IMG/VR virus record: IMGVR_UViG_2939702853_000004
Coordinates: 1 to 64,000 of that record
Source of the DNA: a virus
Taxonomy: Duplodnaviria; Caudoviricetes
Length of the DNA stretch: 64,000 nucleotides
Strand: one strand, 5' to 3'
Shown: one piece after another, positions 1 through 10,492 of the stretch
How positions within the stretch are numbered: position 1 is the first letter of the stretch
How the letters are laid out: every line of letters begins with the position of its first letter
Translations under genes and position numbers: made by a program
The notes under the pieces: model-generated
The model's database searches: none
What the model saw: the letters and a program-made list of their open reading frames with translations, nothing else
What the model was told of the DNA's origin: nothing

Positions 1-1287
1 TTAACCTTCTGTGAAGTCCTTGAGGGCATGACCATATTTTTCATATTCACCTCGCTGAACTTCTACCTCATAAATGACATCATTACCATCATACTCGGTC
101 AGGAGTACATCCCCGATCCGGTAAAGTACCGATGTCAGGTCCCCACGTTCCGCAGGAATGCGGAATCTCAGCGTATCTCCGCTCAGATGCTCCTGAATCA
201 GCTCACGAAGACGCAACAGATCACTTTCGTCGAATGAGCTGATTTTCAAATAGCCCTCGCCGGAAGGAAGCATTTCCAGTTGCTCAGGAGTACAAGCGTC
301 TTTTTTATTAAACAGTACGATCTGAGGCTTGTCCGCAGCCCCCAGTTGCTCCAAAATCGTTTCCACGACTTTCATCTGTTCGTCACGCATATCCGAAGAA
401 GCGTCTACCACATGCAAAATAAGATGGGCCTCATTAGCTTCCTCCAGAGTAGCGCGGAAAGAAGCAACCAAATCATGAGGCAGATTTTGAATAAAACCAA
501 CTGTATCTGTAAGAATAATCTCTTTGCCGCTCGGCAGTTCCATCGTTCTGGAGGTAGGGTCCAGTGTCGCAAACAGTTGGTTCTCAATATATACATCAGC
601 CGCCGTCAGTTGCTTTAACAGCGTTGATTTCCCCGCATTGGTGTAACCGACAAGCGCTACCTGCACAATACCACTCTTTTGTCTACGCTCTCTATGTAAA
701 TACCGATGACGGGTGACTTCTTCCAACTGACGCTTCAAATCGCTGATACGATCACGGATGTGACGGCGATCTGTCTCCAGCTTGCTTTCACCGGGACCAC
801 GTGTTCCGATACCGCCGCCGAGTCGCGACAGATTTTTGCCGTGTCCAGACAAACGGGGCAACAAATAGGACAGCTGTGCCAGCTCAACTTGAATAATACC
901 TTCCCGTGTTTTCGCACGTTGGGCAAAAATGTCCAGAATGAGCTGCGTACGGTCGATAATTTTGAGATCCAGACTTTCTTCCAGATTTCGCACCTGAGCC
1001 CCCGACAGTTCCTGATCAAAAATAGCCGTATTCGCTCCCAATTCCTGGGCAGCCGCACGCAGTTCTTCTACCTTACCTTTGCCGATAAACCATTTGGAAT
1101 CCTTTACTTCCTTGTTCTGGGTCAAAACGCTAAGCACTTCAACACCAGCCGTCTCAGCCAGCTTCACAAGTTCATTCAGAGAGTATTCTGTATTGATGCC
1201 AGAACGCTTGACTTCATCCGTAATTAGACTGACCAGTACTGCCTTATCCTGCATTTCGGTTTGTGTATCATAAGTGGAGTTCGCCAT
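1..1287 (-). CDS. hflX: GTPase HflX (host)
   Basis: Motifs GYTNAGKST, LFATLDPT, DTVGFI and NKKD, plus the HflX signature GGGIGTRGPGE. AAGGAG RBS precedes the ATG at 1287. Host-like GC content. Confidence 0.97.
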   Translation of the reverse strand: MANSTYDTQTEMQDKAVLVSLITDEVKRSGINTEYSLNELVKLAETAGVEVLSVLTQNKEVKDSKWFIGKGKVEELRAAAQELGANTAIFDQELSGAQVRNLEESLDLKIIDRTQLILDIFAQRAKTREGIIQVELAQLSYLLPRLSGHGKNLSRLGGGIGTRGPGESKLETDRRHIRDRISDLKRQLEEVTRHRYLHRERRQKSGIVQVALVGYTNAGKSTLLKQLTAADVYIENQLFATLDPTSRTMELPSGKEIILTDTVGFIQNLPHDLVASFRATLEEANEAHLILHVVDASSDMRDEQMKVVETILEQLGAADKPQIVLFNKKDACTPEQLEMLPSGEGYLKISSFDESDLLRLRELIQEHLSGDTLRFRIPAERGDLTSVLYRIGDVLLTEYDGNDVIYEVEVQRGEYEKYGHALKDFTEG

Positions 1288-1401
1288 ATTGTTTGCTCCT
1301 TTATTTTCCATGTTAACTCTCGCACAGAGACCGACCTGATATTCAGGCCGGCCCCCGTTTGATGTTATACAATTCGATGTGATTCAGATTTCTATTATCG
1401 C

Positions 1402-1803
1402 CTATCTTTTGTCCATTTTCAAATCCTCAGGACGCAGCGTCATCAGTTCCTGCTTTCCCGGCTGCCCGCTCCTGTATTGATTGAGCAGCCGGACAGCCTG
1501 ATGCCGAATCGCTTTTTCGATCACATTGCGGACATAACGCGCGTTGCTGAATGCATGAATACTGTCGTTGCGTTCATTCAACAGATGCTCTTTCATTTTG
1601 AGTATGGACTGGGGCATGAGAATATAATCCCGTTCTTTGGCCATCATTTCGGAAATTTGGATAAGCTGATCCACGGTATAGTCCGGAAAATCAAGCTGGA
1701 TGGGAAAACGGGAAGGCAAGCCTGGATTTGTACGCAAAAAGAAGTCCATCTCACCCGAGTATCCGGCAAGGATCAAAATAAATTGATTTTTCTGATCCTC
1801 CAT
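1402..1803 (-). pseudogene. spoVK: 3' half of host spoVK (AAA+ ATPase), interrupted by the prophage
   Basis: MEDQKNQFILILAGY...NPGLPSRF...FSNARYVRNVIEKAIRHQAVRLL is the C-terminal half of SpoVK. Walker A/B are missing. It lies upstream of hflX, as spoVK normally does. GC content drops right after 1805. Confidence 0.93.
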
Positions 1804-3463
1804 GGATTTGCCGAGAAATTGTGTTTAAGTGTGTATTTATCGATTCATTTCCTCCCCAATCAACAAAGTCTAAATGCAAATAGATGTTGATTTTATTGTC
1901 TTCTCCAAGTACAACCTTTTTAACAAACAATCGAGTAACGCTACGCTTAGTCTCCATATCTATATGGTCTTTATCAAGTAAATATTTAAAAGAACGTAAT
2001 GATTTTTGCACCAATTCAACATGATTTTGCTTATGCAATACCGATGATAAGTTTTGATCTATTGTTTTTAAATCTTCTTTTATATCTTTTGTCTGTACGT
2101 CAACCGCCGAAATCTTATCTTCCAAGTCTTTCATTTTAATTATTCCAGCGGCGTACATTTCAGTGTATCGTTCGCGCGTTGCCTCTTTTTCCTGCAAAGA
2201 CTTTTCTAGTTTCTTTTTTTGAGTAAGTAATTCATTAGAATTTGAATTTTCTGATTGTTGTTTAACTATACGCTCAAAAAAATCAGTTGGATTACTTATA
2301 ATATTTTTAACATATTCCCAAACAATCTTATCAACGTAATCGACTCTCCAATTACGACCTTTACAGATTGTATTGGGTAGTCCAGTTCCTACCTCAAAAG
2401 ATTTTATCGCTTTGTGTTGGCAAGTGTAATACTTCAAAATACCACTCTTAATTTTTGTCGTTATCCCTGATGAAACTGCTCCACCACATCTTCCACAACG
2501 ACAAATGCCACGCAGTAAATAATCGTCAGAGGGTCTACCAGATTTATGTTTGCTTAAGTTCTTAATTTTATTTTGGATTTTATTGTAAGTCTCGATTGTA
2601 ATATAGGACGGCACAGGAATACGTCTCCATTCCTCTCTTGGTTGTGGAACTTGTTTCTTTGTTCCATCAGCATTTCTTATCACCTTTGATTTACCAAAAT
2701 AAAAATTACCTGTGTAAGTTTCGTTTTTGAAAATTCTGCTTATTGTAGTCTGATACCATCTACTTCCTTTAGGAGCTGACACGTTACGTAAACACAATTC
2801 TTCAGCGATCCTCGAACAACTATAATCTTTATGTAGAAGCATATCTACCATTCTCAGAAAAATTTCTTTTTCCTCTGGATTTTCAATCAGTGTATCCAAT
2901 TCAGTGTCATAAGTATATCCATAAATTCTATTTAATCCGGGTATTAGCCCATTTTTAACCTTAGTAACTCTGCCACGCTTAGTATCTGCCAATATTTTAG
3001 CTTTATTATATTCGGCAATGGAACCCTGAATATTAAAGTTCAACATAGATTCAGGACTTGATTTGTCAAATTCAAACTCCACAAACCAAAAATCTTTGCC
3101 CATTCCCCAAATACGGTTAGAGAGCTGAGTCTGTAAATGCAGAAAACGACTCATTCTGTTTGGATGAAGGAATATCATATGATCTCCAATTCCATACTCT
3201 AGCAAAAACAAGGCATAATTAATCATTGGGCGATTAGGATTATCTCCACTTTCTCCGTCTTCTACTAAAACTACTACTTCGTCTTCATTTATGCCTTTTT
3301 GTTTAGCTAAATCCATGCATCGTTCAACTTGAGACTCTATTGAATAATTATCAACCTGTCCGTCAGTAGATACACGAGCATAAATAAGAGCCTTGATCTT
3401 TATGACCAAGGCTTCAAGCTCAGTTTTGGTGAATTTTTCTGATCCCGTTAAAGAAATGAGCAT
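1751..3463 (-). CDS. Large serine recombinase (prophage integrase)
   Basis: Catalytic YARVST motif, D-G-ESG, recombinase domain (YGY, W...TI..I..NETYTG), zinc ribbon CGRCG...YYTC, coiled coil. RBS AGGAGG. The ORF crosses the att junction. Confidence 0.96.
   Translation of the reverse strand: MLISLTGSEKFTKTELEALVIKIKALIYARVSTDGQVDNYSIESQVERCMDLAKQKGINEDEVVVLVEDGESGDNPNRPMINYALFLLEYGIGDHMIFLHPNRMSRFLHLQTQLSNRIWGMGKDFWFVEFEFDKSSPESMLNFNIQGSIAEYNKAKILADTKRGRVTKVKNGLIPGLNRIYGYTYDTELDTLIENPEEKEIFLRMVDMLLHKDYSCSRIAEELCLRNVSAPKGSRWYQTTISRIFKNETYTGNFYFGKSKVIRNADGTKKQVPQPREEWRRIPVPSYITIETYNKIQNKIKNLSKHKSGRPSDDYLLRGICRCGRCGGAVSSGITTKIKSGILKYYTCQHKAIKSFEVGTGLPNTICKGRNWRVDYVDKIVWEYVKNIISNPTDFFERIVKQQSENSNSNELLTQKKKLEKSLQEKEATRERYTEMYAAGIIKMKDLEDKISAVDVQTKDIKEDLKTIDQNLSSVLHKQNHVELVQKSLRSFKYLLDKDHIDMETKRSVTRLFVKKVVLGEDNKINIYLHLDFVDWGGNESINTHLNTISRQIHGGSEKSIYFDPCRILG
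1786..1819. other. Prophage attachment junction (attL or attR hybrid site)
   Basis: Host spoVK homology ends at the ATG at 1801-1803. Palindromic core TCCATGGA (1799-1806) is flanked by imperfect inverted arms (CAGAAAAAT vs CCGAGAAAT), as expected for a serine-integrase att site. Confidence 0.7.
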
Positions 3464-3754
3464 TTGACTCCTCCTGTATTTATTAATTATTTAATTATTT
3501 TTATGTATTTATTATATATCTTTTGGCACCAAATGAGAATACTTTTTCATTATATTTTCCAACCATATTGTAAATTCATTCTTTATTTCTTCGATTGGCT
3601 TAGTTTCCGCTTCGTCTACAATATGTACTACAACTTCAAAACTATTTATATTACTTCTTTTCATCTGCTAAGCTATCCTCTCTTGTTTTATTTATTGTTT
3701 TATTTGACCAGACAAAATATAAAAATATCTATAAAATACTACTTTTACGCACTC

Positions 3755-4327
3755 CTATTTCTTTGTCTGTTTATATTTGAAACATTTTCTTTCATCATCA
3801 ATTTCTTCTTGAACAAATCCCTCAGTTGCGGCTTTCAAAATCGAACAGTTTCTTTTATATCTGCTGCATGTTTTGCACTTTTCTAAAAATTTTATGTATG
3901 ATTTCTCGTTATCAAATATTCCTATGTACTCAACGGGTGTGAATGTAAGTTCAACTCTAGGGTTCTTCTTGTCATAAAGGATACGCTGTGTTCGAGTTAA
4001 CACTCTACTGTCGTTGTCATAAACAATCTTCTCTAGGGCATCATTGTTCAATTTATAAATATTATTATCATCTCTGCCCTTTCTGTTAAAATAAATTAGT
4101 GTGTCCATATAGAGATAATGTGTCTTTGTATACTCGTAATCCCAAGGCTGACTTTTTATTTGTTCTGAAGCCGCAACGGTAATTTGCTCTTTAACCTTCT
4201 CTCCTTCTTTGCTTAAAATTCTTTTTCCTGTAGGGACTCTTTTTCTGATTCTTACATCCCACACATATTGGTTTATGTATAAATCATTGATTGAAACAGG
4301 AAGAGGTAACGTTAAATTTAACTTCAT
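3755..4327 (-). CDS. RusA-family Holliday junction resolvase
   Basis: LPLPVSIN N-terminus, DDNNIYKLNNDAL...YDNDSRV acidic motif, NPRVEL, C-terminal Cys cluster. Confidence 0.8.
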   Translation of the reverse strand: MKLNLTLPLPVSINDLYINQYVWDVRIRKRVPTGKRILSKEGEKVKEQITVAASEQIKSQPWDYEYTKTHYLYMDTLIYFNRKGRDDNNIYKLNNDALEKIVYDNDSRVLTRTQRILYDKKNPRVELTFTPVEYIGIFDNEKSYIKFLEKCKTCSRYKRNCSILKAATEGFVQEEIDDERKCFKYKQTKK

Positions 4328-4839
4328 AGAAAACTCTCCATCGTTCTAATTCTACTGTCTATGTAATCAGTTTCTAACTTCACTAATTCATCATATTTTT
4401 CATCAACAATAAACCCTAACTTTTTATATATCTTAAGTCTGTTCAATGTGTGTGTTTTAAGCTCTTTAATCAACTCGATATTGTGTCCTACTAAATTCAA
4501 TACTATTCATCTCCTGCTACGATATTTTTTGCTCCATTAGCCTTCTTTAGACATTCATAATTTGTCGTGTACATTTAGTCCATCAAATAAGATTAGTATT
4601 TCATCTCCAGTTAATATAGATTTGTTGCACCCCGCACAAGTTGAAAAATCATCCACCTCCTTATCCTGTGCGTCAGAGAAAACGATATTTATGATGCTGA
4701 GTTTCGAATCTATCGAAACTATTTCTCATTATTGTTTTCCTTAAGCAGTTTGTTGAGGACGAAAGACACAATCTCCTTATATTCATCATCGCTAAGTTTT
4801 CTATTTAAGATAGACTCAATCTTTCGCTTATTCATTTTG

Positions 4840-7800
4840 TTATCCATGTAATTGCTCCTTATCTGTGTATTTTGAATAACCAGTAATCCATATATCCGTT
4901 TGGTCAGTCGGTTTAAATCCGCCATTTCCATCAGGAACTTGTCTAGTCTTCTTTTTATGGTTAGTTATTTCAATAAGATCACCTTTGTTAATTTTTAGAG
5001 TTGTATCTTTTGTGTTAAAAGTTTTTTTGTCCATCTTAAATATTCGCTCTTCTCCACGTCTTAGATTGTATAAGGTAAGCTTGGGAGAATATTTAGTGTC
5101 CAAGTCAGTTACAACACACCAACTCGCGTTTGCATTGGGATATTTTGCATCAGAATAACCTAACATTTCTTTTTGGAACATGACTATTTCATTTGGTAAC
5201 AGCTCTTGGATTTCATTATTTGATCTTAGTTCTGACTCTATTAGTCTTAATTCTTCCAATCTCTTATTTTTAGTTTTTTCAACATACGTCTTTTTGTATT
5301 GATTTTTACCACTAGAAAATTCATTATATATAGCCATCAATAAACCGTTGTTGCCATACTCAGAAAAGAAGTTTAGTTTAAGTAATATATCCAACTGCCT
5401 TGTATTTACTGAAGTTTTTTCAGTAACATCCACCAACAAATCTATAAAACTATCATATGTATTTTGGCTTAACTCCAATAATTCAGAAGCAATTTTTGCA
5501 TTCAAAAACTTAATTGATTCCAAGCCTTTATATATCGTGTTTTCTTTTTCATTGTAAGAATAATCTGCATTCGACTTACCGAACTTAATTGACGATACCT
5601 CTATACCTCTAGACTTAGCATATACAATTATTTGCCCAGTCTTATCGATATTATCGTTATTTATGTTCAACATGACTGTTAAAAAAGCTAAGGGATAATA
5701 ATATCTCAAATAACCGTTACCATAACCAATATGAGAGTATGGGTTTGAATGATTGTCGGAGAAACCATATCTCTGTGCATCGTCAATTACTTGTAAGAAT
5801 GGTTCGAGTACTGCCAAAGCTAAATCTTCAGTTTCTCCATAATCTTTTTGCATTTTTGCTATGAACCTTTTTCGTATTTCTGGTAGGAATTTTTCAGTGC
5901 CCTCTTTTTTACTAAGCCCTCGACGTACACTATCGCTTTCTGCCATCGTAAAATCACAAAACTCAACAAGAAAATTCATGATTTGTTCTTGATAAACTAG
6001 ATAACCAATTGTACTTTTCAGAAAACTATTCAACGCTTTATGTCCGTGATCTTTGAATACCCCATTCGCCAAAGCTTGCCTGTAAGAATCTCCAGATGGT
6101 CGAATTGCTCCATTTCCAATTGAAAATAATTCAATATAACTAAAGTTCGGATTCTGCTTCTTTATTTTATGTATTGTTTCAGGACTTAGTAAATCTTTGA
6201 GATATGCCTGAGCGGAATTGCTTTCCCATTGGAAAATACCAAGTCCAGATTCTCTTATTGAATTCCAGACACTCTCGTCATCAACATCCATATTGTCAGG
6301 AGTCAATCTATTTATTCCTGCTAATTTGCACGCTTCATTGATAATTTCATTATTATCTAGACCAAGTATATCTAATTTTACATAATTGAGACCGTCAAGT
6401 TCCTTCATATTAATTTGACTAACTGGATACTTACTCTCTTTTGTATAGCAAAGCCCAATATTGTCGTCTAAGCTAATCGGTGAAACTATATATCCAGAAG
6501 GGTGAGAACCAATACTTAGTATTACTCCTTGAACTAGATCGACGTATTTAAAAAGATCTGGATATCTTTCGATATATTTGGAATCAACCTTGTCCTTTTT
6601 ATCATCGTCCTTGTATACAGACTTTGCGATTTCATCCACTATTGAAAGCTCCATATTTAATGCTCTACCAATTTCTCTGATTGCCCCTTTTAATGCAACT
6701 GTATTAAAGGTTATAATTTCAGAGAAATAGATGCCGGGAATAGTTGCTACGTAGTCAATCACATCTTGTCTCTTAGAAGGAGGCCAATCTAGATCTATAT
6801 CGGCTAGTGAAATGCGCTCTGGATTCAGGAAACGAAAGAAATTTAGTTTATGCTTAATGCTATCCATCTCTGTAATCTTCAAAAGATAAGCAATCAAACT
6901 TCCGTTTACTGAACCTCGTCCATATCCTTGATATATCTCATTTTTGTGCGCCCAATCCACCACATCTTTTTGAAGCAACATATAATCAATTGCTCCAACT
7001 TTCTTATATGTATCAAACTCTTCTCTGATTCTTTCGAAGTAACTCCGTTTCTTTTCTGCATCAAACCTATTTATTCCTCTTTCAACTACACCTACATTTA
7101 TCTTCTCTTTAAAAACTTTCTCTGGATCGTGATACAATTTTGGGTATTTAGGAGACGAATCGATTTTAAACTCTTCAATCATATTAGCCATAACATTTGT
7201 ATTATGAATCGCTTCAAGATAAGCGCTTCGTGGCATTGAATTTTGTTCCTCAAACATTTTTACTAATTCAGGATAGGTCTTGAATGTTAAGTCGAACGCA
7301 TCTTCGTCTCCATAAGTTGCCCCTTTCGCCTTCATAAGAATAGTTCTAGCAGATGCATGAGCTTGATTAAGTGCATGTGTATCTGTTCCAGCAATAAGCG
7401 GAATTCCAGTCTCTTTAGAAATGTTGTATAGATGCTGATTAAACAGTTTTTGTTCTGGATGAGTATGATACTGAATTTCAAAGAACATTCGATTTTTACT
7501 TTTCACGAAGAAATCCATTAGTCGGTTATACATCTGTTTGTTGTCATTCTTAATTGCTCTCCATAGTGGTGATGCTAAACAGGCAGATGTCATAATGATA
7601 TTGTCTGAAGTGTTAAATAACTCATCGAATGTTAATCTAGGGTTATAATAATAATGTCCATCTTCTTTGTTGTTGGATGTAGACGTCAATCGATTCAGCT
7701 CTTTTACTCCGTCCCAATTTTTAGCTATAAGCATGTAATGGAAATTGTCTCGAATTAATCCTCGTTCTCTATCGTTGTGTTCAGTTAGATACACTTCATT

Positions 7801-8013
7801 GGCATGGATATATTTCATACCTTTTTCTTCAATCGATTGTTTCTTTTTTACCCAGTTAAATACGTTGCCATGCTCTGAAAAACAAATTGTACTCATCTGC
7901 GCTTGCTCTGCTGCATCTATGTATTGTTTGAATTTTGTAACTGAGTCCACAGCCATCGATGTCGATGGATTGCTATTATCAGAATGCAAATGATAAATCA
8001 CATAGTTATCTAT
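4840..8013 (-). CDS. dnaE: Phage DNA polymerase III alpha subunit (DnaE type); probable ATA start at 8013
   Basis: PHP domain (HLHSD, EHG, TDTH), GRGS, FFRFLNPER..ADIDLD, HPSG, KLDILGL, YQEQIM. RBS GAGGT is 8 nt before an in-frame ATA. Confidence 0.93.
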   Translation of the reverse strand: MDNYVIYHLHSDNSNPSTSMAVDSVTKFKQYIDAAEQAQMSTICFSEHGNVFNWVKKKQSIEEKGMKYIHANEVYLTEHNDRERGLIRDNFHYMLIAKNWDGVKELNRLTSTSNNKEDGHYYYNPRLTFDELFNTSDNIIMTSACLASPLWRAIKNDNKQMYNRLMDFFVKSKNRMFFEIQYHTHPEQKLFNQHLYNISKETGIPLIAGTDTHALNQAHASARTILMKAKGATYGDEDAFDLTFKTYPELVKMFEEQNSMPRSAYLEAIHNTNVMANMIEEFKIDSSPKYPKLYHDPEKVFKEKINVGVVERGINRFDAEKKRSYFERIREEFDTYKKVGAIDYMLLQKDVVDWAHKNEIYQGYGRGSVNGSLIAYLLKITEMDSIKHKLNFFRFLNPERISLADIDLDWPPSKRQDVIDYVATIPGIYFSEIITFNTVALKGAIREIGRALNMELSIVDEIAKSVYKDDDKKDKVDSKYIERYPDLFKYVDLVQGVILSIGSHPSGYIVSPISLDDNIGLCYTKESKYPVSQINMKELDGLNYVKLDILGLDNNEIINEACKLAGINRLTPDNMDVDDESVWNSIRESGLGIFQWESNSAQAYLKDLLSPETIHKIKKQNPNFSYIELFSIGNGAIRPSGDSYRQALANGVFKDHGHKALNSFLKSTIGYLVYQEQIMNFLVEFCDFTMAESDSVRRGLSKKEGTEKFLPEIRKRFIAKMQKDYGETEDLALAVLEPFLQVIDDAQRYGFSDNHSNPYSHIGYGNGYLRYYYPLAFLTVMLNINNDNIDKTGQIIVYAKSRGIEVSSIKFGKSNADYSYNEKENTIYKGLESIKFLNAKIASELLELSQNTYDSFIDLLVDVTEKTSVNTRQLDILLKLNFFSEYGNNGLLMAIYNEFSSGKNQYKKTYVEKTKNKRLEELRLIESELRSNNEIQELLPNEIVMFQKEMLGYSDAKYPNANASWCVVTDLDTKYSPKLTLYNLRRGEERIFKMDKKTFNTKDTTLKINKGDLIEITNHKKKTRQVPDGNGGFKPTDQTDIWITGYSKYTDKEQLHG

Positions 8014-8090
8014 AGTTGGTTACCTCGCTTTCCTTTTAAAATATTGATTTTATTTAGACCGAACTTGCTTAACTTCACCTCCTTCAGCCC

Positions 8091-8159
8091 GTTACTTCAT
8101 AGAGAATAATCGACTCAATTATATAATGAAGTACATATAATTATTCTCTATGAAGTAAC
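8091..8159. repeat. Perfect 20-bp inverted repeat between phage spoVK and dnaE
   Basis: GTTACTTCATAGAGAATAAT (8091-8110) and ATTATTCTCTATGAAGTAAC (8140-8159). Confidence 0.9.
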
Positions 8160-8170
8160 ACAGTGCTCAA

Positions 8171-9148
8171 TTATTGTGATATGAAAATTTCATTCTTATC
8201 AATGTCTTTAATTGAATCTGTTGATATGTCTCTTGGTAAAATATCCATTAAATTTTGTTTTGATATTTTGACACGTCTGCTCATTATCCTGACAGCCTGA
8301 TGCCGAATCGCTTTTTCGATCACATTGCGGACATAACGCGCGTTGCTGAAATTTAATCTACTGTCCTTTTCAATCTGAATTATTTCCTTTAACTTAATCA
8401 TTGCGTCAGTGGTGAGATTGTAATCTTTTTCAACTGCCATTTTAACAGCAATTAGCATTAGCTCGTCTGTTGTGTAGTCCTTAAAATCAATCTGAATTGG
8501 AAATCTAGACGGAAGGCCAGTATTTGTCTTAAGAAACATCCCCATTTCATCGGGATATCCAGCAAGTATTATTATCAAATCGTCACTTCTATCCTCCATT
8601 ACTTTTACAAGACAATCTATCGCCTCCTTTCCAAAATCCTTATCGCCACCTCTCGCCAAGCTATAAGCTTCATCAATGAAAAGAATTCCCCCCATTGCTT
8701 TTTTGACCAGATCTCGTGTCTTTTGAGCCGTGTGCCCAATGTATTCTCCAACTAAGTCTGCTCGTTCTACTTCAATTAAATGACCTTTACTCAGAATCCC
8801 CATCTTGTTTAATAATTTTGATGCTATTCTTGCTACTGTCGTTTTCCCCGTACCGGGATTCCCCTTGAAAATCATATGGTAAACTTGGTTGTTACTTTTT
8901 AAACCTTCTTCATTTCTTAGTTTCTGAACCTGTATTAGCGCATAAATTTCAAAAATAAGATCTTTTACCTTTTCAAGTCCAATCATTTCCTCTAGTCCTC
9001 GGAAAATGTCTGCTGCTGTTTCGTAATGATTACTGGTTAATGCGACTTCTTCGTTTTGATCAGATATTGCATCATAGGCATCTTGACTTTTAAATACAAC
9101 ATTAATTCGTGATTCATTAACAGTAATTTTTCTGGAGCTTTCATCCAC
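8171..9148 (-). CDS. spoVK: Phage-encoded full-length SpoVK-like AAA+ ATPase
   Basis: HMIFKGNPGTGKTTVAR, GHLIEVERADLVGEYIGHTAQKTRDLVKKAMGGILFIDEAYSLARGG, FSNARYVRNVIEKAIRHQAVR. RBS GAGGTG 6 nt before GTG at 9148. Confidence 0.93.
   Translation of the reverse strand: MDESSRKITVNESRINVVFKSQDAYDAISDQNEEVALTSNHYETAADIFRGLEEMIGLEKVKDLIFEIYALIQVQKLRNEEGLKSNNQVYHMIFKGNPGTGKTTVARIASKLLNKMGILSKGHLIEVERADLVGEYIGHTAQKTRDLVKKAMGGILFIDEAYSLARGGDKDFGKEAIDCLVKVMEDRSDDLIIILAGYPDEMGMFLKTNTGLPSRFPIQIDFKDYTTDELMLIAVKMAVEKDYNLTTDAMIKLKEIIQIEKDSRLNFSNARYVRNVIEKAIRHQAVRIMSRRVKISKQNLMDILPRDISTDSIKDIDKNEIFISQ
8291..8350. repeat. 60-bp exact direct repeat shared with the host spoVK fragment (1492-1551)
   Basis: gacagcctgatgccgaatcgctttttcgatcacattgcggacataacgcgcgttgctgaa is identical at both loci; the flanks diverge immediately. 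Confidence 0.95.
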
Positions 9149-9168
9149 AGTAATCACCTCGTTGAGAC

Positions 9169-9198
9169 AGTATATGCCTTTACGTGACTACAACATGC
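9169..9198 (-). promoter_or_regulatory. Putative sporulation (sigma-E-type) promoter of phage spoVK
   Basis: Minus strand GCATGTT-N15-CATATACT resembles the sigma-E consensus (kCATAtt-N15-CATAcanT), about 20 nt upstream of the start codon. Confidence 0.6.
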
Positions 9199-9254
9199 AA
9201 ATAAGTTTGTTCAAATAGTTAATCTGATTAATTATTTATTTGTTTTATGTATTT

Positions 9255-9270
9255 GTAGGCCGAAGCCTAC
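9255..9270 (-). terminator. C(UUCG)G hairpin directly after the parM/RHH operon
   Basis: GTAGGC-TTCG-GCCTAC; lacks a strong U tract. Confidence 0.45.
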
Positions 9271-9542
9271 TATAAACCTATAAATTCATCTAAACTTTTA
9301 TCAAGCGCTTCTTCCGATGAATCAATTAACTCGAATTCTCCTGTTGTTTCATCTGACATATCTAATTCAATTTGGCTACCCAAAATCTCAGGCTTTCTAC
9401 CTTTATGGCTAAATAAAAATTGTCTTAATGCTTCTCTGACAATATCGCTTTCATCATAGTAAACGGGCAATAGAGATAACGCCTTTCTTATATCATCATC
9501 TTTTTTGTCTCTCAGTCTAGCGCTAACTATTCTCTTCCCCAT
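9270..9542 (-). CDS. Ribbon-helix-helix DNA-binding protein (ParR-like adaptor)
   Basis: IVSARL...DDDIRKAL...SDIVREALRQF pattern, acidic tail, overlaps the parM stop. Confidence 0.65.
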   Translation of the reverse strand: MGKRIVSARLRDKKDDDIRKALSLLPVYYDESDIVREALRQFLFSHKGRKPEILGSQIELDMSDETTGEFELIDSSEEALDKSLDEFIGL

Positions 9543-10492
9543 AGCCGCACCCCAACTTTTTCATATCCTCTTATTTGAGCCAGTTGGTCAAAGAGAATTT
9601 TATTATTGAAATTGAGTGTATCGAAAATATGATGTGCTGCACCTCCACCAATTAAATAATAATCAAAATTTATGTTTAATCCATCCGCCTCATTTTGAAT
9701 TTGAATTGCTAAGGATTTGAATGCTTTAGCTATTAGTGGCTTAATGTTAACCCCTTCGTAAATGCCGCTCATAACTATTTTATCCATCTCATAAATAGCT
9801 GGAGCTTGTCCTACTAGATTTTGTATATATTTTCTCAATAGTTTATATGCTTTTTCCACACCCAATAGTAAACTCGTAGATTCTTTCATGATTTCAAGTT
9901 TATCGAGTCCAAGTAGATTTAAGGTGTAAAATCCCAGATCAATCACTAGTATCTTCTTTTTGGCTATATGAACCTTTTCAATTTTACCTTTTATATTAAG
10001 CAGGTAATCCATTGCTATTCCATACCCTTGTGGCACAATCTTATATTTAATTATGTTTAGGCTAATTTCCGAATAACGTCCTCGTCCTTTTTTAATACTG
10101 TATGTACTATTGCTACTTATTTTATCGAGCATCTTTTCCATATCGCTTTTCTGATCGAAATAGAATGAAACAGGTAGTCCAGTAACCATCTTAAATGGGT
10201 TGTTCCCATTCAAATAACCAAGCCCAGTTTTCAATAGCACCTCTGATGTCATAGCCTCACTCTTATTGTTTTTAAGGGTAAAATATTTGATCTCGCTATG
10301 TCTGAGTGCAAGGTCGCCAATAAATAGCTGTTCATTGTAAAAGAAATCATTAGGCTTTATATTCTCATCAAACATCGGTTGTGTTTCACCTGATATTGAG
10401 GGTTGAAGATATAGCCTGTTTCCTCTTTTCCCTTTAGTCCAACTAAATCCTAAATCAAATACACTTAAGTCCTCAACAACAGTTGAAGCCAT
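9527..10492 (-). CDS. ParM/StbA-family actin-like ATPase
   Basis: Phosphate-1 DLGFSWTK, VTGLP, VPQGYG, phosphate-2 IDLGFYTLN, adenosine motif IGGGA. Confidence 0.88.
   Translation of the reverse strand: MASTVVEDLSVFDLGFSWTKGKRGNRLYLQPSISGETQPMFDENIKPNDFFYNEQLFIGDLALRHSEIKYFTLKNNKSEAMTSEVLLKTGLGYLNGNNPFKMVTGLPVSFYFDQKSDMEKMLDKISSNSTYSIKKGRGRYSEISLNIIKYKIVPQGYGIAMDYLLNIKGKIEKVHIAKKKILVIDLGFYTLNLLGLDKLEIMKESTSLLLGVEKAYKLLRKYIQNLVGQAPAIYEMDKIVMSGIYEGVNIKPLIAKAFKSLAIQIQNEADGLNINFDYYLIGGGAAHHIFDTLNFNNKILFDQLAQIRGYEKVGVRLWGRE

Follow-up and report, generated by a model that had tools for sequence, protein, structure and literature searches.

A temperate phage that breaks the sporulation gene spoVK of its bacterial host appears to carry a working replacement for that gene. 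The phage lies in a 64,000-nucleotide stretch of DNA, hereafter the window (positions 1 to 64,000 of IMG/VR record IMGVR_UViG_2939702853_000004), which corresponds to G000:C10:54412-118411, a part of contig C10 in the analysed 5.1-Mb assembly (G000; G-numbers denote genomes). In our assessment, it is likely that the element is an integrated Goe14-type prophage with a working spoVK cassette that keeps the lysogen sporulation-competent, with or without excision. A second proposal, put forward with moderate confidence, is that this mobile cassette replaces interrupted host spoVK and has permanently displaced the chromosomal gene at least twice in the host genus and at least twice in a second genus.

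A Goe14-type large serine integrase has inserted the phage at a Lys codon of host spoVK. The cassette is self-contained, running in the order upstream hairpin, sigma-E-type promoter, strong ribosome-binding site (RBS), spoVK and downstream hairpin. Under the proposed mechanism, it would be transcribed during sporulation by mother-cell RNA polymerase carrying sigma-E, and possibly sigma-K too, with the prophage otherwise repressed, and its product would be a working SpoVK, the AAA+ chaperone that enhances the activity of MurG at the surface of the forespore. SpoVK in the mother cell has been described as a chaperone for MurG, and a Bacillus subtilis spoVK deletion is complemented by a single ectopic spoVK copy (PMC11513918). 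Spore formation in the lysogen would thus be preserved, with mother-cell excision of the prophage or without it. Lying near the phage attachment site attP, the cassette exchanges sequence with host gene fragments, and it has repeatedly become the only chromosomal spoVK, presumably through loss of the remaining prophage and the old gene.

The host gene is cut just before MEDQKNQF, as the original prediction had read it. The 3' part of host spoVK, K/SMEDQKNQF to the stop codon, occupies 1402-1809(-) on the minus strand and matches positions 137-261 of TIGR02881; its open reading frame (ORF), 1402-1803(-), holds the last 133 codons with MEDQKNQF at its start, and the split falls at LVK/SMED. Next to it is hflX (1-1311(-)), a GTPase gene and the native downstream neighbour of spoVK, whose product is 95-99% identical to HflX of Paenibacillus polymyxa-group strains. 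The left 1.8 kb of the window is host DNA with a GC content of 43-48%, and the other 62 kb has 31-38%; the fall, at about 1.8 kb, is from 0.43-0.48 to 0.32-0.36. The 5' half of host spoVK was to be sought at the other prophage end, and it does lie there, behind genes for DUF402 and DUF218 proteins on another contig (G000:C11:69159-69701(+)); it ends in EAIDTLVK/TKV and a stop, the three final codons being phage-encoded. This 5' part is the only SpoVK-like sequence elsewhere in the assembly. Judging from the names attached to near-identical proteins and to near-identical flanks, the host is a P. polymyxa-group bacterium.

Low-GC DNA extends from each junction to the contig end, over 99.4 kb on C10 and 77.5 kb on C11. 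The prophage is at least 177 kb long, has 33-36% GC and is flanked by both host spoVK halves. Its C11 arm codes for a portal protein, a large terminase, a 2330-aa tape measure protein and minor tail proteins, and the same insertion in the complete genome of a sister species (G081) measures 174 kb. By its gene content and extent, the element is a siphovirus-type temperate prophage of about 175 kb, and the window holds its right end.

The second spoVK lies about 6.4 kb inside the phage, between the side that holds a ParM-like gene and a 90-aa ORF and the gene for a phage DnaE. Its place, its divergence and its completeness, with both Walker motifs and an RBS of its own, agree with the original prediction. 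The mechanical ORF spans 8171-9157(-) and codes for 328 aa; a likelier start is the GTG at 9148, behind the RBS, which gives 325 aa, as in database entry P0001. In this protein Walker A reads GNPGTGKT and Walker B reads ILFIDEAY, and AGY and NxGLPSRF motifs are present. The clade signatures described in PMC11513918 can all be seen in the translation: Walker A and B, GY in sensor 1, the Arg finger in N-x-G-L-x-S-R-F, the sensor-2 Arg in NAR and a short N-terminal strand domain. Identity to the host protein is 56% over the C half, 62% over the N half and about 60% overall.

Evidence that the phage gene is maintained by selection came from comparison of its copies. The ratio of nonsynonymous to synonymous divergence (dN/dS) among phage spoVK copies is 0.03-0.06, at dS of 0.16-1.6; the window gene is intact and, on these estimates, the gene is under strong purifying selection. 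Another account of its presence is that it is a neutral passenger from an aberrant excision, with loss pending. The gene does lie 1-7 kb from attP in both of the gene orders seen (G000 and G021 types), which is where captured host DNA would be expected. This account is scarcely credible, however, given so low a dN/dS over saturating synonymous divergence, and given that the promoter is conserved and that spoVK is kept while the neighbouring DnaE varies: spoVK-adjacent DnaE proteins (L024-L029, L045-L050) are 35-90% identical to the window DnaE, and the adjoining spoVK 77-90%.

Additional evidence for a role in sporulation came from the DNA around the gene. The sigma-E-type promoter candidate noted earlier, GCATGTT-N15-CATATACT, is present at 9169-9198(-) and is conserved, and the RBS, GAGGTGAT, lies at 9153-9160(-). 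The -35/-10 pair is at a fitting distance, with transcription predicted to start near 9161. A total of 15 spoVK copies, from prophages and native loci, were aligned over this region. In the 13 intact copies other than that of G069, the -35 block GCATnTT, the -10 block CATATACT followed by GTCTyAAC, and the RBS are all kept, while the 15-nt spacer and everything farther upstream vary; copies with the conserved motif are only 70-90% identical to one another. G069 has the variant GAATTAT-N15-CATATAAT, and the broken copy of G021 is without the motif. The RBS is invariant in all copies, and also in the native-locus cassette of G128/P0024. The same promoter architecture stands ahead of the sole spoVK in the species of the G025 group and in G128, whereas vertical-type host spoVK has a different sigma-E-like promoter, TAATATT-N14-AATACATT. 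In B. subtilis, transcription of spoVK depends on sigma-E and sigma-K (PMC517825).

The gene is also set off from its surroundings by predicted RNA structures. A UUCG-tetraloop hairpin, GTAGGCTTCGGCCTAC, follows the upstream ORF at 9255-9270(-) (-10.1 kcal/mol, z -5.3), and a long, terminator-like hairpin without a U tract lies just downstream of spoVK at 8088-8160(-) (-32.7 kcal/mol, z -5.5). The UUCG hairpin is kept in 9/9 intact prophage copies aligned, degenerate in the broken copy of G021 and absent from native-locus alleles; G081 has a hairpin of other sequence at the site equivalent to the downstream one. This hairpin had been said to separate spoVK from parM and a ribbon-helix-helix (RHH) gene, and both it and the ParM-like gene are in place, but the supposed RHH gene, the 90-aa ORF upstream of phage spoVK, has no Pfam or NCBIfam match. 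A scan of 7900-9700 for sigma-70 promoters and terminators gave nothing above shuffled sequences. With its own promoter footprint and terminator-like hairpins on either side, inside a prophage, the gene has the organization of a moron.

The most telling evidence, which the original prediction had not foreseen, comes from genomes where the phage-type gene stands alone. A survey covered 93 species representatives of the host genus. In five of them (G000, G081, G002, G096 and G021) spoVK is split by a prophage of 154-177 kb, and all five prophages have a phage-type spoVK; in two more (G007 and G066) the host spoVK is intact and a related prophage carries the phage-type gene. Vertical-type spoVK alone was found in 81/93, and phage-type spoVK alone in 5/93. 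These last five (G025, G023, G089, G093 and G069) have the phage-type gene at the native spot, between the DUF402 gene and hflX, with no other spoVK copy and no related prophage. In G025, host homology ends 184 nt ahead of the start codon, phage-type homology runs from -43, promoter included, to near the stop codon, and host homology resumes with the former spoVK, of which the last ~22 nt and the terminator are left. The relics of the old gene beside replaced alleles comprise its last 22-30 nt; G069 has the same kind of relic about 350 nt farther downstream.

Phylogenetic data support replacement of the chromosomal gene in these species. By HflX, they fall within a fully supported clade with G002, G096, G007 and G066, whose chromosomal spoVK is of the vertical type in 4/4. 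Approximately unbiased (AU) tests, in which the groups had been named after the first tree was seen, reject vertical descent of the replaced alleles (p 4.6e-12) and a prophage-copy clade that excludes them (p 0.001). The alleles of four G025-group species have dN/dS of 0.007-0.014 and are more strongly constrained than the phage copies; their dS reaches 0.37, which indicates that the replacement is old. In the second genus (g32), the mobile type was found in 3/20 sampled genomes. In G128, homology to the flanks of a vertical-type neighbour ends 237 nt ahead of the gene and returns about 220 nt past it. In G254, also of the second genus, a 58-nt relic of the old spoVK is retained; a 1.7-kb insert stands between the replaced spoVK and hflX, ahead of the relic (L064:700-2430), and its two ORFs, of 235 aa and 186 aa, have no known function. 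The P0024-type allele, in the order miaA-hfq-...-DUF218-spoVK-hflX, was considered as an ancestral chromosomal donor and rejected, because it is the minority type in its own genus and because flanking homology shows in-situ replacement. As a separate observation, the Paenibacillaceae genus g26 gave a SpoVK match at E <= 1e-30 in 0/21 sampled genomes (4.3-6.1 Mb, 99-100% complete), whereas every other genus has one.

Phage-type spoVK is thus the sole native-locus copy in seven genomes (G025, G023, G089, G093, G069, G128 and G254). To judge from this position, the gene type acts as the organism's spoVK, in species other than the G000 strain. A native-locus cassette serving as the sole spoVK amounts to a natural experiment, and it supports the supply of SpoVK in trans by the prophage. 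The complementation in trans that the original prediction suggested is therefore supported in substance, by selection, by the conserved promoter and by native-locus replacement. A causal tie between the gene and the insertion site was not established, nor was the idea that the phage need not excise.

These data also bear on the possibility that the phage protein is a chaperone of the SpoVK/CbbX/EccA clade of AAA+ proteins that serves the phage's own cycle, in assembly, replication or counter-defence, and is unrelated to sporulation. The SpoVK-like genes of phage G, Emery and mycobacteriophage Adler would be its counterparts. SpoVK-like ATPases are indeed encoded by phages with other lifestyles or integration sites than spoVK, the gene sits within a replication and partition block, from ParM to DnaE, and its TIGR02881 score (405 bits) is under the curated equivalog cut-off of 423. 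Native SpoVK proteins of Paenibacillus are under this cut-off too, however, with 412 bits for the vertical type and 395 for the native-locus mobile-type allele of G128/P0024. The phage protein is 60-70% identical to chromosomal SpoVK, as opposed to only 35-44% to other phage SpoVK-like ATPases. Given also the sporulation-type promoter, the insulation by hairpins, and the status of the gene as the sole native-locus spoVK of several species under very strong constraint, we regard a role confined to the phage cycle as very unlikely.

Traces of sequence exchange between the two kinds of spoVK were found in the window itself. A 60-bp tract of the phage gene, 8291-8350(-), is identical to host spoVK at 1492-1551; it has a host-like GC content of 52%, against a background nucleotide identity of 55-65%, and looks like a gene-conversion patch. 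The match is specific to this phage and host pair, and in another lysogen 53 bp of the phage copy agree exactly with a host N half. Such conversion tracts show that phage and host copies recombine. Conversion together with deletion is a plausible route to the replaced loci. The two 60-bp tracts are direct repeats 6.8 kb apart, and recombination between them could delete the integrase gene, the DnaE gene and the junction.

Evidence on how the prophage entered spoVK, and on whether it could leave again, came from the integrase and the attachment sites. The integrase, a large serine recombinase, is encoded at 1751-3463(-); its prophage form has 570 aa, from a reading frame that spans the junction, so that the final 17 residues are host-encoded. 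Resolvase, Recombinase and Zn_ribbon_recom domains are present in close homologues, and the integrase is 42.6% identical to that of Goe14/SPR/BUCT082 over 97% of the protein. The SPbeta-like phage vB_BsuS-Goe14 inserts into an AAG Lys codon of the B. subtilis spoVK gene and has its attP within the integrase gene (Kohm et al., bioRxiv 10.1101/2021.11.22.469490). The host gene considered here is likewise split at a Lys codon, EAIDTLVK/SMED, and Bacillus-type prophages in IMG/VR break spoVK at the identical Lys codon of LVK. By the integrase and the attachment sites, the element belongs to the Goe14 integrase family. The integrases of the Paenibacillus prophages form two lineages, about 48% identical to each other, with an identical target site. 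A single-protein scan of genome contigs with the integrase gave no confirmed relative, and relatives were found by whole-genome searches in its place. In a genome from another family of the order (G060, L022:5900-10200, GC 0.55-0.6), the corresponding region of spoVK is interrupted by a minimal gene-intervening element of 3.2 kb, in which a serine recombinase 30% identical to the window integrase is the sole recognisable gene.

The junctions were examined in G000, G002 and G021, and the latter two have 10-bp cores common to both junctions. In the window phage, attL reads GTA-AAG-ACG and attR reads GGC-AAA-TCC-ATG, and the inferred crossover dinucleotide of attR is AA at 1808-1809. An AA crossover gives an attB of GTA AAA TCC ATG, coding LVKSMED; uninterrupted P. 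polymyxa SpoVK reads LVK(S/A)MEDQ. The in-silico excision product is in frame, 327 aa long, and has LVKSMEDQ as in natural alleles, so precise excision would rebuild a natural allele. The in-silico attP form of the integrase (window 1751-1830 joined with L002:2026-2415) has 680 aa, compared with 570 aa in the integrated state. Its residues 2-675 align end to end with residues 1-679 of the 693-aa Goe14 integrase, and its 127 extra residues align with the C-terminus of that protein. Since attP is inside the integrase gene, integration strips about 127 C-terminal residues from the enzyme. Directly upstream of the integrase gene is a gene-called ORF of 50 aa (3512-3664(-)), conserved in 10 related prophages and with a conserved motif, GTAAAAGTAGTATTTTA, about 70 nt ahead of it. 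This ORF is a possible recombination directionality factor.

The original prediction further held that the gene might be an adaptation to the insertion site, and a survey of co-occurrence was made. Eight more P. polymyxa-group loci were found in NCBI, ENA and IMG/VR, with the series ParM, small ORF, spoVK, DnaE, integrase, host C half and hflX, and phage-type spoVK is present in 13/13 spoVK-integrated Paenibacillus prophage loci examined (one with a stop codon). In a phage DnaE search (E <= 1e-150), prophages of this kind were found only in genomes that also have phage-type spoVK. Both relatives integrated elsewhere carry the gene as well: the prophages of G007 (L019:3400-5437) and G066 (L031:3729-5654) have another large serine recombinase and interrupt ytfJ, also a sporulation gene, past codon 32 or so. 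The ytfJ fragment begins at TPDGTVILPISK; intact YtfJ in G002 has 161 aa, and no spare ytfJ was found in these two prophages or elsewhere in their genomes. Moreover, none of the five isolated Bacillus phages with a Goe14-type integrase has a spoVK homologue. Carriage is thus not specific to insertion in spoVK, and a specific adaptation to that site is not supported, given the ytfJ-integrated relatives that have the gene and the same-site Bacillus phages that do not. By the refutation criterion of the original prediction, carriage in relatives integrated elsewhere weakens the idea that the gene is there to complement the phage's own insertion. In the SpoVK tree, the copies from ytfJ-integrated prophages nest among those from spoVK-integrated prophages, which suggests a recent swap of the integrase module. 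Phage spoVK is a constant cargo of this Paenibacillus phage lineage and no strict correlate of the insertion site. A side observation is the strong mosaicism around the constant spoVK in the related prophages.

Several observations weigh against the proposal that lysogens owe their ability to sporulate to the cassette. Neither half of the host gene is damaged, so excision would rebuild a natural allele, and excision-based restoration, as in SPbeta and skin, may possibly be the main route. In G021, the phage spoVK is at the opposite prophage end and has one premature stop codon; with its phage copy broken, this lysogen should depend on excision. The two ytfJ-integrated relatives have the phage-type gene beside an intact host spoVK. 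The lysogens are mutually related, and the carriage counts are not independent. Finally, the sigma-E-like pattern is not enriched in the prophage (4 matches compared with 2.7 expected), and the weight of the promoter candidate consequently rests on its position and conservation.

Some of these observations fit an alternative in which host spoVK is restored by programmed mother-cell excision, as with SPbeta in spsM and skin in sigK. The phage spoVK would then not be needed for complementation and would serve the phage; it might, for instance, adjust when spores mature or how many do so, or co-assemble with host SpoVK. Elements of this kind are known to restore genes by excision (PMC4191935), and, besides the intact host halves with their in-frame, natural-like product and the broken copy in G021, the integrase of the window phage is intact with a conserved small ORF ahead of it, and the ytfJ-integrated relatives keep spoVK under purifying selection next to an intact host gene. 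Against this stand three points. Apart from three matches on the non-coding strand, the scanned sigma-E-type pattern was not found elsewhere in the prophage, and neither it nor any convincing sporulation promoter was found upstream of the integrase gene and the 50-aa ORF. The prophage form of the integrase is short of about 127 C-terminal residues. The cassette suffices as the only spoVK in several species, which argues for an ordinary SpoVK and not a specialised modulator. Restoration by excision alone is a possible but rather doubtful explanation; it is compatible with complementation by the cassette, and both routes could operate.

Nearly every long ORF in the phage part of the window is on the minus strand. 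Between the 50-aa ORF and the spoVK cassette are a putative RusA-like resolvase gene (3755-4327(-), Pfam PF05866) and the gene for a predicted phage DnaE-type DNA polymerase III alpha (4840-8001(-), NCBIfam match). The phage DnaE is 53-55% identical to the DnaE proteins of the 160-169 kb Bacillus siphoviruses vB_BcoS-136, FADO, PJN02 and PBC2. On the other side of the cassette, 9270-10492(-) holds the 90-aa ORF and the gene for a ParM/ALP-like, actin-type segregation protein, the ParM-like gene itself being 9527-10492(-). Elsewhere in the G000 assembly, contigs C18, C42, C52, C54, C56-C58 and C64 have 54-59% GC, compared with 46-47% for the genome; they may be contamination or a foreign replicon (the reported contamination is 1.14%).

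Each of three components of the system has precedents: spoVK as a phage integration site, elements that interrupt sporulation genes, and phages with sporulation genes are already known. The closest relatives by integration system are Goe14 and the BS155 prophage of B. subtilis, whose large serine integrase is a homologue with 41-43% identity along its full length and whose target is the same, down to the Lys codon of LVK. In Goe14, attP is also in the 3' coding part of the integrase gene, and integration also shortens the enzyme, by about 130 residues. Unlike Goe14, the window phage resides in Paenibacillus, measures about 175 kb and has a different backbone, with a DnaE nearest to those of 160-169 kb Bacillus siphoviruses, not SPbeta; and the Goe14-type Bacillus phages have no spoVK homologue (0/5), whereas the Paenibacillus lineage always has one.

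Some integrating elements offset the damage of their own insertion: lambdoid phage 21 and e14 in icd, and many tRNA-integrating elements, rebuild their target through a duplicate 3' end. The window phage would resemble them in this respect, but theirs is a solution in cis, with a short gene end at attP, whereas the window phage has a whole gene that would act in trans, several kb off. A different solution is found in the gene-intervening sporulation elements, which include SPbeta in spsM, skin in sigK, vfbin, vrin and gin (PMC4191935, PMC5595907). As in SPbeta- and skin-type elements, a serine-recombinase element splits a mother-cell sporulation gene that precise excision would rebuild. Those elements are without a spare copy and rely on developmentally timed excision, whereas the window prophage has a complete gene with a sporulation-type promoter.

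Phage-encoded homologues of host sporulation genes include sporulation-like sigma factors (PMC9429907) and sporulation genes of gut phages (bioRxiv 10.1101/2023.01.19.524802), and phage G carries a spoVK homologue, gp596 (bioRxiv 10.1101/2024.12.16.628780). Most of these cases concern lytic phages or genes with no link to an insertion site, and the homology is remote (the phage G protein is 43% identical). The gene of the window phage, in contrast, is a close xenologue accompanied by its promoter; the prophage that carries it disrupts host spoVK, and in some species this gene type has taken the place of the host copy. A literature search gave no report of a prophage carrying a full replacement of the sporulation gene that it splits, and no report of a phage-type spoVK displacing the chromosomal gene.

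Prophages in sporulation genes are the textbook case of active lysogeny, in which well-timed excision switches the gene on again. If a prophage supplies a functional version of its disrupted target gene, this would be a second solution to the same conflict, one that uncouples sporulation from excision. The system is common in the P. polymyxa group, and it touches on the purpose of phage-encoded sporulation genes and on the ability of a truncated Goe14-type integrase to excise. It also provides a concrete and datable case in which an allele carried by phages has supplanted a core developmental gene, with the relics of the old gene and the conversion tracts still visible. If the proposals made here are correct, a core sporulation gene would have undergone orthologous replacement with a prophage as the vehicle, and the lysogens would be able to sporulate without excision.

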